The notes: a model not told the origin generated them from the sequence alone. A stretch of DNA of 64,000 bases from Pirellulales bacterium (GCA_035499655.1 DATJYL010000197.1:25255-89254), one strand, 5' to 3'; shown: positions 16,759 through 21,504, counted from the first letter of the stretch. A program made the numbers and translations.

Positions 16759-18156
16759 TTAATTCTTAATGAAAGCACTTGAATCAACTTTTTGTCGAGG
16801 CCAAAAAGATTGCACTGACTGATATGAGATGTTGATCAGGCTTTCATCAGTGCTAGGAACCGCGCTGATCTCGGTTGGGGATTCCAAGCGAACGTCGACT
16901 GAGTCGTAGCGCTTTCCGCCATGCAAAATCCGAAGCGGCTCAGCAAGCACAATTGTGGCGGCGACTGCACCAACAAACGGAACCGCTGCACTAACACTAG
17001 CTAATTGCATGTGGCCGCAACCGTCGTGTGCGGCAACACTCCGATAAAAAACATTTTCTAAAATTGCTGATTCATCCATCGACGGACTTGCTGATGAGGG
17101 CCAAAATTTCGTTGCTGCTTTCTGACCATTTGGGAAACTGTGGATACTGATTGCATCAAAATTGTCAGACCTTCCTCCGAGTCCGGCTTCAGTCACAAAT
17201 TGAAAGCCAACTTGATCCAATGCTTCTCTCGGTCCCTTACCATCAAATCCACAAAGCCCAAGGCCTGGATCGCTGCCAACAACCTGGCACCCCTTTTGAA
17301 ATGGTCTTTCCAGAAGCTTAGGACTAAACCCACGTGCGCGCAACCAACGAAGTGCCACGCGCGATTTTAGCTTCCCGCGGTCACGCTTCCTGGAAATCGA
17401 TCCTGAATCCCAGTTACCAGTAACAAGCGTGTCATAGTCGTTGAGCAGCAGATTCATATCACTGGGGTCACTGTAAGGCAACAATCCAATACACCAGAGA
17501 TAGGCTTGACCGAGATGACCTAATCCCAGCAACCACGCCTCATTCGGAACAACCTCTAGCGGCATACCCACCGCATCCAGCGCATCCCACGACAGTTCAG
17601 GACGCCAAAGCGACATTCCAATTGTCCGCTTGGTCGCCTCAATGTTGACACGCGCAATCCGTAGAAAAAGTTCAGAAACTGCGAGAGCACCTGCGGCAAC
17701 GCCTGCAAGCGGATTATGTTCGCGCTCCAACAGCCGGACCTCTTCACCAGGACCAACTGCTGCAGCCCAACCATCAAAAGTAACGTGCAAACCATTGCAC
17801 ACATCGCGGCGACTTCCAAATACAATGCGGGACGTGTGTTCGGCTCGTGGAGGTTTGCGAACACCGATTCGCTTGAGCGCATCCGCAAAATTCACCGCGC
17901 TACCAAATGGAACGGCAAGCGGCATGTCTTGTCCGGGATTTGCTCCGTCGCAGACCACCATGCCAGGAAAACAACGCACTGCTGTATTCGCCGCCGTCAA
18001 TATGGCGGATTGCCATACGGCTGACCCCACAACCTCCTTCCCCCAGCACAACATGATCTGCGATTTCGATAAAATACTGGTAGCCTCCGCCGGACAAATG
18101 TTCAATTTTTCGATAAGAATCTTGTCTCGCCGCGAAAATGTATCTCGATCTAACAT
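16759..18156 (-). CDS. bilD: E1-like ubiquitin-activating (ThiF/MoeB-family adenylating) enzyme, BilD-like
   Basis: A Rossmann nucleotide-binding motif LLGLGHLGQAYLW lies ~210 aa into the protein. It is preceded by a degenerate Rossmann-like segment (IMLCWGKEVVGSAVWQSAILTAANTAV...VVCDG). The ThiF-like C-terminal helix is AVPFVGAVAATIVLAEPLRIL. It is the last gene of the Ubl-E2-JAB-E1 operon. The ATG at 18156, with AGGTG 6 nt upstream, is preferred to the GTG at 18228, which would overlap the JAB gene. Confidence 0.8.
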   Translation of the reverse strand: MLDRDTFSRRDKILIEKLNICPAEATSILSKSQIMLCWGKEVVGSAVWQSAILTAANTAVRCFPGMVVCDGANPGQDMPLAVPFGSAVNFADALKRIGVRKPPRAEHTSRIVFGSRRDVCNGLHVTFDGWAAAVGPGEEVRLLEREHNPLAGVAAGALAVSELFLRIARVNIEATKRTIGMSLWRPELSWDALDAVGMPLEVVPNEAWLLGLGHLGQAYLWCIGLLPYSDPSDMNLLLNDYDTLVTGNWDSGSISRKRDRGKLKSRVALRWLRARGFSPKLLERPFQKGCQVVGSDPGLGLCGFDGKGPREALDQVGFQFVTEAGLGGRSDNFDAISIHSFPNGQKAATKFWPSSASPSMDESAILENVFYRSVAAHDGCGHMQLASVSAAVPFVGAVAATIVLAEPLRILHGGKRYDSVDVRLESPTEISAVPSTDESLINISYQSVQSFWPRQKVDSSAFIKN

Positions 18157-18167
18157 TGCGCGCACCT

Positions 18168-18650
18168 TTACCAAAGGCTTAAATGGATCCGCTGACGACG
18201 ATGTTCTAATTTTGTCCAGTCCGTCCACTGAAGGTTACCGCGATATTCAAAAAACCCAACGCCGCGCAAGCTCAAGCACCAATTCATTGCATAATTGGGC
18301 AGAATGATCGCCATGTGCGACACCTCACCGATCATTGGATTTTGTCGATCGCTATTGCTTTGCAGTGCAATTCCCGGATGCGTGTGAACATCTGCTAATA
18401 CTCTCGCATTTCTTTCGCGGCATACCTTCCAGAGGTTGGAAAAGCCATCGCTAGCAAAGGTAATAATCCCTGTATCAAGCGCGTGGGAATTTAACTCGTT
18501 GTAGAGAACAAACGATGTCACTTTGTCGGCCCATTCACCCCGCACGCCTAGCAAGAACGCGCCACTTTCATGGATACCACGTCCGGCCTTACGAAGGCAG
18601 CGTACCAATCGAAACCATACAAAAACTGGAATCTCTAAGTTGCGGTCCAT
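18168..18650 (-). CDS. bilC: JAB/MPN (JAMM) metallopeptidase, deubiquitinase-like, BilC-like
   Basis: JAMM signature: Glu in IHESGAFLLG, then VHTHPGIALQSNSD (HxH...SxxD). 160 aa. Its ATG directly abuts the stop of the upstream E2-like gene (TAAATG). Confidence 0.85.
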   Translation of the reverse strand: MDRNLEIPVFVWFRLVRCLRKAGRGIHESGAFLLGVRGEWADKVTSFVLYNELNSHALDTGIITFASDGFSNLWKVCRERNARVLADVHTHPGIALQSNSDRQNPMIGEVSHMAIILPNYAMNWCLSLRGVGFFEYRGNLQWTDWTKLEHRRQRIHLSLW

Positions 18651-19100
18651 TTAGTTCAACAGTAAATGAAGTTCTTCTAGCAGGTCGACTATCGAATGAT
18701 TTCGATCCCATACCAGTCGTTGCAGTTCTGTCTTCCATTGACCATGCGAGTTCGCTGCTACGCGATCGTAAGGATGGTACAGCGAAGTCGGGTTTACAAA
18801 GACTTTTTCCCCGCGCCCGGCGATCTGCGGCCGCTTGTCCATGCTCAGCCAGTTTTTGGTTTCGGGATCCCAAAGATTCCCGGTTAATGCGTCGATCGGA
18901 TATTTTTCACAATTCCACTTAAAGTAATATTTCGGAGCCAATCCATTTCCGTTGGCCGTAACCCAAAGCACTATATCTGGCCAAATCAGGTCCGGCGGGA
19001 GCAGCGATGGTTCGCATACTCCCCACCGGCCCTCGTTTGAGCCAATCATGAACCGCGCGGACTTTAGGTCGGCGCGCATTGCGCGTTCATCAGGCGTCAT
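18651..19100 (-). CDS. bilB: E2-like (UBC-fold) ubiquitin-conjugating-type protein, BilB-like
   Basis: 149 aa, with size and operon position of an E2 between the Ubl and JAB genes. There is a UBC-like YYFKWNCEKYP segment and a later LYHPYD. Only two Cys are present (GVCEPS, WNCEKYP). The fold assignment is inferred, not demonstrated. Confidence 0.55.
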   Translation of the reverse strand: MTPDERAMRADLKSARFMIGSNEGRWGVCEPSLLPPDLIWPDIVLWVTANGNGLAPKYYFKWNCEKYPIDALTGNLWDPETKNWLSMDKRPQIAGRGEKVFVNPTSLYHPYDRVAANSHGQWKTELQRLVWDRNHSIVDLLEELHLLLN

Positions 19101-19112
19101 AAGGTCCTCGCT

Positions 19113-19631
19113 TTAGCCCTGAATCTTAGGATCAGGAAGGAGGTCAAAGGTCAGATGGCATTTTCCTTCGTGGACGAACTCGCAAAGATCCTGCGTCCGA
19201 CGGGCACCGACCTTGGTACCATTGACCTGCAAGAACATGTGCTTCTTATCTTGACCCTCGGCGAGCGGAAATTTGCTCAAGGCCCAATCAAGCACATAAC
19301 CGATGCGCGTCCTCGACGCAAAGTGTCGTTCTTCCGTGCGTTCTTGATAATGCACGACAACAGCAACACTACGGCAACGGTGACAGAAAATGTGATAGCC
19401 GCTTTTTACACCAATGCTAGCCAGCGTAGCGTCAAACTCTGGGCTAACCAAATCGTCATCGCCCGGTGACTCGATACCGTCTGGTGCGACAACTTCGATT
19501 GCGAAGGACGCAACATCGATGCCAACACCATCCTGCTTCAGCAGCTTCCGAAGCGTCTCTTCAGGTGTGGCGACCAGACATTCTGGCTGAACACCCTCCC
19601 GGTGCAGAAACAATTCAAATTCATTTTTCAT
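19113..19631 (-). CDS. bilA: Ubiquitin-like (probably tandem beta-grasp, ISG15-like) protein ending in Gly, BilA-like
   Basis: 172 aa. The C-terminus is ...LLPDPKIQG followed immediately by the stop. It is the first gene of the operon, and GGAG lies upstream of the ATG. The C-terminal half (VAVVVHYQERTEERHF...IGYVLDWALSKF...MFLQVNGTKV...CHLTFDLL) has a beta-grasp-like alternation. The assignment is based on architecture. Confidence 0.6.
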   Translation of the reverse strand: MKNEFELFLHREGVQPECLVATPEETLRKLLKQDGVGIDVASFAIEVVAPDGIESPGDDDLVSPEFDATLASIGVKSGYHIFCHRCRSVAVVVHYQERTEERHFASRTRIGYVLDWALSKFPLAEGQDKKHMFLQVNGTKVGARRTQDLCEFVHEGKCHLTFDLLPDPKIQG

Positions 19632-19758
19632 CCTCGTCTCCTTTAATAAAAAGGACAGTGCGACAAACGACTAGCACTGGAACAATCCAGCGCTTGACAA
19701 CTGAGCCGCACTTTGCCGAGAATGAGGTTCTTCGAATGGGCCCTCATACGGCTCAGTG

Positions 19759-19786
19759 CGGACGCGCTGCGGAAACAGCGCGTCCG
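19759..19786. other. Strong GC hairpin in the divergent control region (CGGACGCGCTG-cggaaa-CAGCGCGTCCG)
   Basis: Perfect 11-bp stem with a 6-nt loop. On the plus strand it is followed by TTACTTTT, which is terminator-like. On the minus strand it would lie in the 5' leader of the Ubl operon. Confidence 0.6.
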
Positions 19787-19843
19787 TTACTTTTCCGATA
19801 AACCTTACCAGCAACGGTCGTTGGAACAGTAACGATAATGGTC

Positions 19844-19872
19844 AGATTAACAATTTTGCCGCCGGTTGTCAA
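19844..19872 (-). promoter_or_regulatory. Candidate sigma-70-type promoter of the Ubl-E2-JAB-E1 operon
   Basis: On the minus strand: TTGACA (19872-19867), a 17-nt spacer, then TAATCT (19849-19844). This implies a ~200-nt leader before the ATG at 19631. Confidence 0.35.
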
Positions 19873-19873
19873 A

Positions 19874-19906
19874 TTTCAGAATCTATATAATTATTTGTTT
19901 CTGAAA
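19874..19906. promoter_or_regulatory. Inverted repeat TTTCAGAA-N17-TTCTGAAA, candidate operator between divergent promoters
   Basis: The 8-bp arms are exact reverse complements, in an A/T-rich context. The repeat lies between the candidate -35 boxes of the two divergent promoters. Confidence 0.4.
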
Positions 19907-19931
19907 AAAACATGTTTGCGACGCATACTTG

Positions 19932-19960
19932 TTGACGTAGGTGTTTCTGGGGCTTATAGT
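19932..19960 (+). promoter_or_regulatory. Candidate promoter of the XRE/ImmA pair, predicting a leaderless mRNA
   Basis: TTGACG (19932-19937), a 17-nt spacer, then TATAGT (19955-19960). The ATG at 19967 lies only 6 nt downstream of the -10 box and has no SD. Confidence 0.5.
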
Positions 19961-19966
19961 TAGGAC

Positions 19967-20314
19967 ATGGCAGCCACGAAGTCAGAAGCGGCAGACCCGA
20001 TCTACAAAAAGATCGGCGAGTTAATCCGGCAATACCGAACTCATCCTGGCGGGCCCAATCTCAGCCAAGACGAGTTGGGGCGTGCGATATCGTTGACAAG
20101 AGCCTCGATCGCAAATATCGAACTCGGCAGACAGAAGGTATTGGCACACACACTCATACAAATTGCAGCCGCTTTGCACGTAGCACCTGAGCAATTGCTT
20201 CCGAACGGAATCGCCACATCACACGAAGCGATTTTTCCAAGGAGTCTGAGGGCCGAAGCGCGACAGTGGATCGAAAGCGCCATCCAAAATAACTGTGTTA
20301 ACGTCCTCAGATAA
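19967..20314 (+). CDS. XRE-family helix-turn-helix transcriptional regulator (CapH/ImmR-like)
   Basis: HTH_3 core LSQDELGRAISLTRASIANIELGRQKVLAHTLIQIAAAL. 115 aa. The peptidase gene starts 3 nt after its stop. Confidence 0.9.
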   Translation: MAATKSEAADPIYKKIGELIRQYRTHPGGPNLSQDELGRAISLTRASIANIELGRQKVLAHTLIQIAAALHVAPEQLLPNGIATSHEAIFPRSLRAEARQWIESAIQNNCVNVLR

Positions 20315-20317
20315 ATT

Positions 20318-20833
20318 ATGCGAGTGCGACGGAAACACATTCGCGACCTTGCCACGAAGATTCTATTGAATCACGGAATTACTGCGCCTTCTGTAGACGT
20401 CGAACGAATCGCAAGAGATGAAGGCATCAAAGTTGTAAGAGAATACGCTAACGATAGATCTATTTCAGGGTTTCTGGATCGTCGCAGCGCAGTTCCGATA
20501 ATCGGTGTCAACAGGCATCACCTCGAGAATCGGCAACGTTTCACGATCGCCCATGAGCTTGGGCACCATTTTCTTCATAGTGAATCCCTATATTTCGATG
20601 ACCGAGTCTTACGATTCAGAGATGCCGAATCCAGTGAAGGCATTAACACTGATGAAATGGAGGCGAATCTATTTGCTGCTGAACTACTAATGCCGAAAGA
20701 GTTTCTCGAGGATTATTTCAGCAATCATATACTTGACATCAATGATGATGAAGCGATTGAGGATTTGGCCAAAGAGTATAAAGTAAGCCCTCAATCGTTA
20801 ATGTATCGATTGAACTATCTCGACTTGGCCTGA
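20318..20833 (+). CDS. ImmA/IrrE-family (COG2856) zinc metallopeptidase (CapP-like)
   Basis: HEXXH motif FTIAHELGHHFLH plus the downstream EANLFAAELLMP third-ligand region. 171 aa. This is the most A/T-rich coding sequence in the window. Confidence 0.9.
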   Translation: MRVRRKHIRDLATKILLNHGITAPSVDVERIARDEGIKVVREYANDRSISGFLDRRSAVPIIGVNRHHLENRQRFTIAHELGHHFLHSESLYFDDRVLRFRDAESSEGINTDEMEANLFAAELLMPKEFLEDYFSNHILDINDDEAIEDLAKEYKVSPQSLMYRLNYLDLA

Positions 20834-20939
20834 AACTAACTTGAGTAACCGCCGGTGCCACTGGCTATGTTAGTATAAGCCGTGACTTTCGTTCTGGCGC
20901 AGGCTAATGGTTACTTCAAACGCTAAACTGGCAAATTCT

Positions 20940-21173
20940 ATGAATCCCATCACGATTACCGGTCAAGTAGACGAACAGCATCTGCTTTCCGCGCGTGCGC
21001 CGGATTCGGTTCCGCCGGGGCCGGTGACGATTCTGGTGTTGCCAGCCGGCGAGCAGGACGATGGCGAGCAAGCCTGGATGGCGGGAATCGCGAACCAATG
21101 GACCGAGGAGTTGAGCGACTCTCGTCAAGATATTTACACGCTGGACGATGGAGCGCCAGTGAATGCACCCTGA
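20940..21173 (+). CDS. Putative antitoxin of the MazF/PemK-type pair
   Basis: Small acidic protein (…WTEELSDSRQDIYTLDDGAPVN) whose 3' end overlaps the toxin start by 11 nt. The start could be 20907 or 20940. No recognisable DNA-binding motif by eye. Confidence 0.5.
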   Translation: MNPITITGQVDEQHLLSARAPDSVPPGPVTILVLPAGEQDDGEQAWMAGIANQWTEELSDSRQDIYTLDDGAPVNAP

Positions 21174-21504
21174 CGATATTTATTTGGCCAGCTTTCCCTT
21201 TGGCGACGCTCCGGGCATGAAGCTGCGGCCTGTGTTGTTGCTGACTGACCGTTTGGGCAGCGTGCCGGAAGTGGTGGTGGCATATATTTCGTCAGTGATT
21301 CCGGCGGTTCTGTTGCCGACCGATCTTGTGATTGATCCTGTGAATCCCGACGGTGCATCAACCAATCTCAAAACCAAGTCGGTCCTTCGATTGCACAAAC
21401 TAGCAACCATTCATGCCAGTGCGATTGTTCGTCGGCTGGGCGCTATCTCAGCGAAAACAAGTACCGAAGTTGACGGCAAGCTACGCGCGCTGTTTCAGTT
21501 GTAA
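21163..21504 (+). CDS. mazF: PemK/MazF-family type II toxin (endoribonuclease)
   Basis: 113 aa with the family pattern: IYLASFPFGDAPGMKLRPVLLLT, VVVAYISS, KTKSVLRLHKLATIHASAIVRRLG. Confidence 0.8.
   Translation: MHPDDIYLASFPFGDAPGMKLRPVLLLTDRLGSVPEVVVAYISSVIPAVLLPTDLVIDPVNPDGASTNLKTKSVLRLHKLATIHASAIVRRLGAISAKTSTEVDGKLRALFQL

Follow-up and report, generated by a model that had tools for sequence, protein, structure and literature searches.

Can a bacterial ubiquitin-like conjugation system operate when its E2 enzyme lacks the cysteine that should carry the ubiquitin-like protein (Ubl)? The question is raised by bilABCD, a four-gene operon found in a 64-kb stretch of DNA (the window, from whose first letter all coordinates are counted) of a metagenome-assembled genome from Pirellulales (Planctomycetota). 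Among bacterial systems, Bil most clearly parallels the ubiquitin/ISG15 conjugation of eukaryotes; what is known of its mechanism comes from two operons, one of Type I and one of Type II, and in both the E2 has a catalytic cysteine. The operon of the window can be assigned to the Type I Bil family, but its E2 is Cys-less, and it belongs to a large branch that is so far undescribed.

Composition of the operon and its place among related systems

The four genes follow one another on the minus strand and code for a Ubl (BilA), an E2-like protein (BilB), a JAB/JAMM metallopeptidase (BilC) and an E1 (BilD), as listed in Table 1. An initial annotation, made from the sequence alone, had read this segment (19631-16759) as a Bil-type Ubl-E2-JAB-E1 operon; on re-check, its coordinates, gene sizes, spacing and stop codons were all exact, and the two motifs that it had singled out, JAMM in the third product (HESG...VHTHPGIALQSNSD) and the Rossmann motif LLGLGHLGQ in the fourth, are present. 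The bilA and bilB genes are separated by 12 nt, agcGAGGAcctt, with GAGGA inside; the TAA of bilB abuts the ATG of bilC with zero spacing, and 11 nt (AGGTGcgcgca) lie between bilC and bilD. A longer bilD open reading frame (ORF), with a GTG start at 18228, overlaps bilC, and the ATG at 18156 was taken as the start because the PADLOC BilD alignment begins there.

All four products match PADLOC profiles over their full length (BilA, 6.9e-27; BilB, 4.5e-37; BilC, 2.3e-52; BilD, 2.7e-125), and the Bil assignment is therefore far beyond chance. In Pfam, BilB corresponds to DUF7665, renamed BilB-like (PF24702, 7.5e-25), and BilC gives a weak Prok-JAB match, while precomputed annotations on relatives include BilA_UBL_2 and BilD_N. 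For comparison with the Collimonas system, a contig of Collimonas sp. H4R21 (L081) served as the reference, its BilA sharing 99% identity with the OK412 protein; BLASTP identities were 29% for BilA (5e-14), 27% for BilB (3e-13), 43% for BilC (1e-40) and 33% for BilD (2e-65). The order bilA-B-C-D is kept in about 75 of 80 related loci. Judged by composition, order and sequence, the operon is thus a member of the Type I Bil family. The family named in the initial annotation stood, all four products matching both the Bil profiles and the Collimonas proteins, and the PADLOC run that it had proposed matched the BilA-D models. Of the profile matches it had expected, Prok-JAB (weakly) and the E1 adenylation motifs were recovered; the second product matched BilB-like, and its E2 fold match was weak and confined to the N-terminus.

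The closest described system is Type I BilABCD of Collimonas sp. OK412 (Millman 2022, Hor et al. 2023/2024), with the same four genes in the same order and all proteins homologous. The likeness extends to the two beta-grasp domains and the Gly end of BilA, the G-loop and Cys of the E1, the JAMM Asp and the downstream His of the E2. The two operons differ in that the E2 has Cys113 in Collimonas, but Tyr111 in the window; in that the E1 of the window clade carries Cys62 (RCFP), whereas Thr, Ala or Ser is found in the Cys-type clade, to which Collimonas belongs; and in their upstream genes, a divergent helix-turn-helix (HTH) and M78 pair in the window versus a co-directional fusion of a weak M78 domain to UvrD in Collimonas.

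With Type II BilABCD (CEHH or '6C') of Ensifer aridi (Chambers et al.), the operon shares gene order, the Ubl/E2/JAB/E1 roles, a homologous BilC (8tyx_B) and, with a subset of Type II operons, a divergent CapH/CapP pair upstream. Type II systems are nevertheless characterised by a Ubl with a single beta-grasp domain, often with a C-terminal extension needing cleavage, by an E2 of about 200 aa with a C-E-H-H motif, and by an E1 of 535 aa with a Zn site (Cys quartet). Type II was ruled out, since the CEHH Cys is absent and the Ubl has two beta-grasp domains. A phmmer search of BilA, BilB and BilD against PDB sequences returned nothing meaningful, and the E. aridi chains were not reached.

Bub systems of Types I and II (Ye et al. 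2024) resemble the window in having conjugation machinery without a catalytic cysteine and in being often linked to CapH/CapP or CapW. They differ in an E1 with Tyr and an E2 with Ser, both without Cys, in fused Ubl-E2, JAB-E1 or E2-E1 proteins, and in the serine protease BubE (DUF6527). Bub was ruled out because the genes of the window are separate, the E1 keeps C380 and Ser never occurs at the E2 site; no DUF6527 protein was found among the scanned neighbours. The 'inactive E2-like' operons of Iyer et al. 2006 were also rejected as the present family, being of the 6e/Bub type. Type II CBASS (CD-NTase, effector, Cap2 E1-E2 fusion, Cap3), already discounted in the initial annotation, is ruled out as well: PADLOC gave only Bil models for the four proteins, and the flanks hold regulators, a toxin-antitoxin module and housekeeping genes.

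A tyrosine in place of the catalytic cysteine of BilB

The BLASTP alignment of BilB is gap-free over the active site and sets LYHPYDRVAANSHGQW of the window (LYHPY111DRVAANSH119GQW) against LYIPC113DRISIQGH121TAW of Collimonas, Tyr111 falling on Cys113. The family core around this position is kept (Y108-H109-P110-x-D112-R113...H119..W122), and the near-invariant H119 aligns to Collimonas H121, whose E. aridi counterpart is H151. Because the catalytic position is Tyr111, the canonical cascade, from E1~Cys through E2~Cys to Lys, cannot operate as written. The earlier description of the second product as an E2/UBC-sized protein overlooked the absence of the catalytic cysteine.

Relatives were collected in two ways. 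An exhaustive HMMER search gave 185 BilB clusters with 112 full-length representatives (a word-indexed homologue search with BilB had returned only BilB itself), and a genome scan yielded 80 species-level loci. The latter was made with the BilD alignment, the 104-sequence BilB alignment being too diverse. Since this locus sample leans toward relatives of the window, its residue fractions are not population estimates: in 75 genomic operons, the E2 column holds Tyr in 41, Cys in 23, Phe in five, Leu in three, Trp in three and Ser in none. Among the 112 representatives, Cys occurs in 31, Tyr in 28, Phe in 15, Trp in 14, Leu, Met and Ile in five each, and Val in four; Ser is again absent. Elsewhere in the protein, the Cys-less BilBs show no Cys, Ser or Thr whose conservation is specific to them.

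In the BilD tree, a first group comprises Planctomycetota including the window, with Tyr, Phe or Leu at the E2 site. The second is the Cys-type group, with Collimonas, Bacteroidota and Verrucomicrobiota, in which about five sporadic losses to Trp, Phe, Leu or Tyr are seen. The third is a large group of Acidobacteriota, Alphaproteobacteria and Paraburkholderia, where 37 of 38 members have Tyr. Five of the window's 13 closest relatives carry Phe and two carry Leu, and five more contigs with the closest BilD relatives have Tyr, Tyr, Phe, Phe and Tyr. In Tyr-type bilB, the ratio of nonsynonymous to synonymous substitution rates (dN/dS) is 0.11-0.23 (pairs with dS 0.4-1.4), equal to that of bilA, bilC, bilD and Cys-type bilB. 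From these alignments and trees, the missing E2 cysteine is a clade trait, not a lesion or a sign of decay. Beside the Cys-less operons no conserved fifth gene was found, and neither the operon nor its conserved surroundings offer an alternative catalytic E2.

The published Type I Bil set consists of 77 operons from isolate genomes, and it is on that set that the 'highly conserved' E2 cysteine rests. In the literature on DUF7665/BilB-like proteins, or on a Bil E2 without its cysteine, no description of this variant was found.

A second difference accompanies the first. The N-terminal (inactive adenylation) domain of BilD carries an R61-C62-F63-P64 motif, residue 62 being encoded at about 17971-17973 on the minus strand. 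Cys62 is present in 42 of the 52 operons whose E2 is Cys-less versus none of the 24 whose E2 is of the Cys type (loci L001-L086), and it occurs in the window and all five closest relatives. It was considered as a compensating relay site; however, the BilD tree reduces its distribution to about one deep transition, possibly shared ancestry, and the sporadic Cys-less E2s within the Cys-type clade lack it. Cys62 is for these reasons a lead and only a hypothesis, rather than evidence of compensation.

Retained features of BilA, BilC and BilD

The AlphaFold 2 (AF2) model of BilA, built with 55 homologues (mean predicted local distance difference test score, pLDDT, 72.9), contains two successive beta-grasp units, 6-84 and 88-166, the N-terminal one with moderate confidence only. 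The best Foldseek matches of this model are ISG15, linear di-ubiquitin and FAT10, covering both domains over about 167-170 columns with a probability of 1.00. As modelled, BilA is an ISG15-like tandem beta-grasp Ubl; the structural search proposed in the initial annotation bore out its reading of the first gene. The protein ends at Gly172, equivalent to Collimonas G163, with no extension, and 69 of 74 relatives are Gly-terminal.

In BilC, E28, H89, H91, S98 and D101 are intact, D101 corresponding to Collimonas D115, and the PDB match is the E. aridi deubiquitinase (BilC) 8tyx_B (3e-4). The JAMM residues E28, H89 and H91, tabulated per locus, are kept everywhere except in two incomplete ORFs. 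With regard to BilD, the G-loop residues G211, G213 and G216 are invariant (Collimonas G217, G219 and G222), and the catalytic C380, equivalent to Collimonas C385, is Cys in 114 of 117 relatives and in 78 of 79 loci. The BilD family profile also matches the adenylation motifs of the NEDD8 E1 UBA3 in the PDB.

Natural BilA-BilB fusions of 308-355 aa occur in both Cys-type and Cys-less lineages (P0002, P0005, P0014, P0044, P0051 and others). In P0002, the nearest relative of the window BilB, the fusion junction reads ...LLPKDRING followed by RPEGAVSSPDERLL... In such fusions the Gly would have to be freed by JAMM cleavage, as in BubAB of Type I Bub.

How conjugation could proceed without an E2 cysteine

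The predicted adenylation by BilD, the Cys380 thioester and deconjugation by BilC are supported by intact conserved residues. BilA would be made with its reactive C-terminal Gly172 already exposed, no processing being needed; BilD would adenylate Gly172 and take BilA onto Cys380 as a thioester, and BilC would trim or reverse the conjugates. BilB presumably cannot accept the thioester, because its position 111 is a Tyr, for which relatives may have Phe, Leu or Trp. We propose that BilB binds to the E1 and brings in the target, whose lysine would then attack the E1~BilA thioester directly. A non-catalytic variant of the E2 is the most economical reading, since the site tolerates Phe, Leu, Trp or aliphatic residues in intact operons, and never Ser. 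A non-catalytic BilB adaptor with direct transfer from the E1 is therefore the overall explanation that we favour, and we regard it as moderately probable. In such a scheme the pseudo-E2 would be the receptor for the substrate, and Cys62 of the E1, which co-varies with it, might assist.

Precedents exist for both halves of this proposal. UEV/Mms2, TSG101 and RWD domains have an E2 fold without the catalytic Cys and act as binding or positioning subunits, and the archaeal SAMP/UbaA and Urm1/Uba4 systems transfer a Ubl to lysine without an E2 thioester. UEVs, however, partner an active E2, whereas the operon of the window encodes none.

The target would be, by homology with Collimonas, a phage structural protein, and the outcome defective progeny virions. 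The Collimonas system tags the central tail fibre (tail tip) of phages with BilA and protects against them. Genes of the defence type (NACHT, SIR2, SNF2 helicase, transposase) are also found next to relatives of the operon.

Several points weigh against a non-catalytic BilB in a defence system. The C113A substitution in Collimonas BilB abolishes defence, and the E2 site thus matters in the one tested system. The Cys-less members are known from sequence, and for the operon of the window the anti-phage role is a deduction from its homologues and genomic setting. The predicted E2 fold of BilB rests on family membership and on the sole PDB match of the family profile, the E2(BilB) chain 8tyz_C, which is weak (E 2.3; hhalign probability 15%) and N-terminal only; as hhalign and profile comparisons with E. 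aridi BilB aligned the N-terminal sheet alone, the active site cannot be mapped in this way, and the single-sequence AF2 model of BilB has a pLDDT of 42. The window copy of BilB is, moreover, unusually diverged and could be partly degenerate: the near-invariant K92, P72 and G93 are replaced, the family 'R-x-D-W-x-x-G' insert ahead of the LY-x-P motif is missing, mean identity to the clade is 36% for BilB, 45% for BilD and 48% for BilC, and the BilB/BilD identity ratio is 0.79 versus 0.94 in its clade. Lastly, the near-uniform Tyr of the largest Cys-less clade, accompanied by His109, fits a catalytic tyrosine better than a space-filler.

The last point leads to the strongest rival explanation, a tyrosine oxyester relay, in which BilA would pass from the E1 Cys380 thioester to an aryl ester on BilB Tyr111, activated by His109, Asp112 or His119, and from there to the target lysine. 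Bub offers a precedent for both Ubl~Tyr and Ubl~Ser oxyesters, Type I having Ubl~Tyr on its E1 (Y370; the Y370F mutant is dead) and Ser with His/Asp on its E2. Besides the 37 of 38 Tyr already mentioned, 46 of the 52 Cys-less BilBs carry His109, where Cys-type proteins have Ala or Cys, and D112, R113 and H119 around the site are near-invariant. However, Phe, Leu, Trp, Met, Ile or Val occupies the site in many otherwise intact operons, His109 goes with the clade rather than with Tyr (YHPF and YHPL both being found), and Ser, the expected oxyester substitute, is never seen. This relay is accordingly unlikely, though worth keeping in mind, and the same holds for what it would imply: a hybrid pathway in which an oxyester follows the thioester, with BilB as the first E2 whose nucleophile is a tyrosine.

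A second alternative leaves conjugation working but changes its purpose, for instance to a modification of host proteins under stress that the HTH/M78 pair would induce. In its favour, this pair belongs to the DNA-damage/ImmR-ImmA type, housekeeping genes and not a rich defence island flank the operon, and no biological role has yet been settled for the related Bub pathways. Set against this are the protection afforded by the homologous Collimonas operon through tagging of the tail tip, the defence-type neighbours of the relatives, and the position of the operon in a low-GC insertion beside a toxin-antitoxin module. We consider such a non-defence role to be improbable.

Loss of the E2 active site could also mean that the operon no longer conjugates and is decaying or inactive. 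The lower BilB/BilD ratio and the loss of K92, P72 and G93 in the window copy would agree with decay, as would the sporadic Cys losses inside the Cys-type clade. On the other hand, the four ORFs are intact with coupled spacing, the catalytic residues of the E1, the deubiquitinase and the Ubl are retained, Cys-less bilB is under purifying selection as are its neighbours, and the Cys-less state is common to dozens of species from several phyla, which makes a remnant very unlikely.

Finally, the canonical cascade that the initial annotation implied, with C29 or C64 of BilB relaying BilA from E1~Cys to lysine, is scarcely credible, although these two cysteines (the only ones in BilB) are available and the pathway has kept its remaining catalytic residues. 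The catalytic position is occupied by Tyr; Cys occurs in 4 of 112 sequences in the C29 column and in 28 of 112 in the C64 column, where Leu is mostly found; and 26 of the 52 Cys-less BilBs, one half, are devoid of cysteine altogether.

The divergent regulatory module

Upstream of bilA, on the opposite strand, lie genes for a CapH-like repressor and a CapP/ImmA-like peptidase (Table 1). The initial annotation had the family of the operon right but overlooked this pair, which, through its promoter region shared with bilA, is the strongest contextual link to immunity. An M78 gene is found upstream in 58 of the 80 related loci, and most of these loci have a divergent M78/HTH pair there.

Table 1. 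Features of the bilABCD operon and its neighbourhood in the window
Feature	Coordinates	Strand	Description
Intergenic segment	15988-16758		About 770 bp from the DEAD-box helicase gene to the bilD end
bilD	16759-18156	-	465 aa; E1 with LLGLGHLGQ
bilC	18168-18650	-	160 aa; JAB/JAMM metallopeptidase (deconjugase)
bilB	18651-19100	-	149 aa; E2-like protein, Pfam BilB-like/DUF7665 (PF24702)
bilA	19113-19631	-	172 aa; ubiquitin-like protein; ends ...DPKIQG-TAA; AAAGGAG 5' of start
Divergent control region	19632-19966	.	335 bp between bilA and capH
Putative bilA leader	19632-19870	-	239 nt
GC hairpin	19758-19787	.	11-bp perfect stem within the putative bilA leader
Inverted repeat	19874-19906	.	TTTCAGAA-N17-TTCTGAAA; candidate operator; repeat search
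Promoter-like site	19932-19960	+	Abuts capH; promoter scan
capH-like gene	19967-20314	+	115 aa; XRE-family HTH repressor; Pfam HTH_3 9e-8; PADLOC capH 5.2e-10
capP/ImmA-like gene	20318-20833	+	171 aa; M78 zinc metallopeptidase; Pfam Peptidase_M78 1.5e-24; PADLOC capP 6.4e-31
Small ORF	20907-21173	+	88 aa; no family match
PemK/MazF-like toxin gene	21163-21504	+	Pfam 1.4e-10

The geometry of the pair is the CapH/CapP arrangement reported with Bil, divergent and with a promoter region in common with bilA. As in CapH/CapP and ImmR/ImmA (Lau et al. 2022; 2026 preprint), an XRE HTH gene is followed by an M78 gene, both divergent from the immune operon. The canonical CapP is a protein of 288 aa comprising peptidase, HTH and GAF domains, in which single-stranded DNA is sensed in the groove between peptidase and GAF, often with a cysteine switch. 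The peptidase of the window, by contrast, lacks the C-terminal HTH/GAF half and the cysteine switch: it has the HELGH motif, no cysteine and no GAF domain, and covers positions 3-150 of the 242 of the capP profile. Because of its 171 aa, its restriction to the first 150 of 242 profile positions and the absence of cysteine, it is best described as ImmA-like, and its size resembles that of ImmA. Since there is no GAF domain, the single-stranded DNA sensing of CapP cannot be assumed for it. In the proposed regulation, the HTH repressor would keep transcription off until stress or infection prompts its cleavage by the M78 peptidase.

In the control region, the operator call is tentative because the half-site of the inverted repeat, TCAGAAACA, shows no enrichment across the window, with 14 matches versus about 11 expected. 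The putative bilA leader is predicted to be strongly folded, with a minimum free energy of -97.8 kcal/mol (z -6.3; 0 of 200 shuffles). This structure is not conserved in 25 related loci and has no Rfam match. The GC hairpin inside it is unique in the window and is not a dispersed repeat; on the plus strand it is followed by a T-rich tail, which gives it a terminator-like look.

Other control genes are found at the same place in relatives. In two close relatives (L082:2044-3201 and L085:2040-3197), one fused HTH-M78 protein of 385 aa stands in place of the two genes, and in two others (L083:2651-3433 and L086:1651-2433) the pair is replaced by a gene for an RNase T/ExoX-like DEDD exonuclease that immediately precedes bilA on the same strand. 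In Collimonas sp. H4R21 (L081:1560-4913), the M78-UvrD fusion mentioned above is a protein of 1117 aa with a UvrD-type helicase, encoded directly upstream of bilA and co-directional; it may sense or regulate in a different way. Evidently, such operons often exchange their control module.

Genomic surroundings

The GC content over 16-21 kb is 0.47-0.54 versus 0.55-0.61 in the surroundings (about 0.57), in agreement with the A/T-richer island of the initial annotation. The further defence-island hallmarks announced there were found in part: the HTH/M78 pair and a MazF-like toxin module are present, but the rest of the flanks is housekeeping (LptF/G, a two-component system, a DEAD-box helicase and P5C reductase), so that the defence-island signs around the operon, which consist of that divergent pair and that module, are modest. 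The small ORF of 88 aa downstream of the M78 gene overlaps by 11 nt the start of the PemK/MazF-like toxin gene. Together they form a probable type II toxin-antitoxin pair, directly 3' of the HTH/M78 genes on the same strand, with which it may be co-transcribed.

At the other end, the segment between the DEAD-box helicase gene and the bilD end contains no convincing ORF, tRNA or Rfam match. It marks the low-GC edge of the inserted segment and may represent an insertion scar or an unrecognised element. The tRNA scan and Rfam search gave no matches, and no DNA-level match was found among plasmids.

Significance for the Bil family

The Bil system itself is already known; the Cys-less variant is conserved and widespread, and apparently undescribed. 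With regard to annotation, PADLOC-type profiles label such operons 'Bil' without a check of the active site. If about two thirds of the Type I-like operons in this sample, which leans toward relatives of the window, lack the E2 cysteine and yet are kept under purifying selection, the thioester relay would cover part of the family only. Cys-less Bil thus poses the question of the minimal E2, catalyst or scaffold, in a four-gene system where it is accessible by point mutants.

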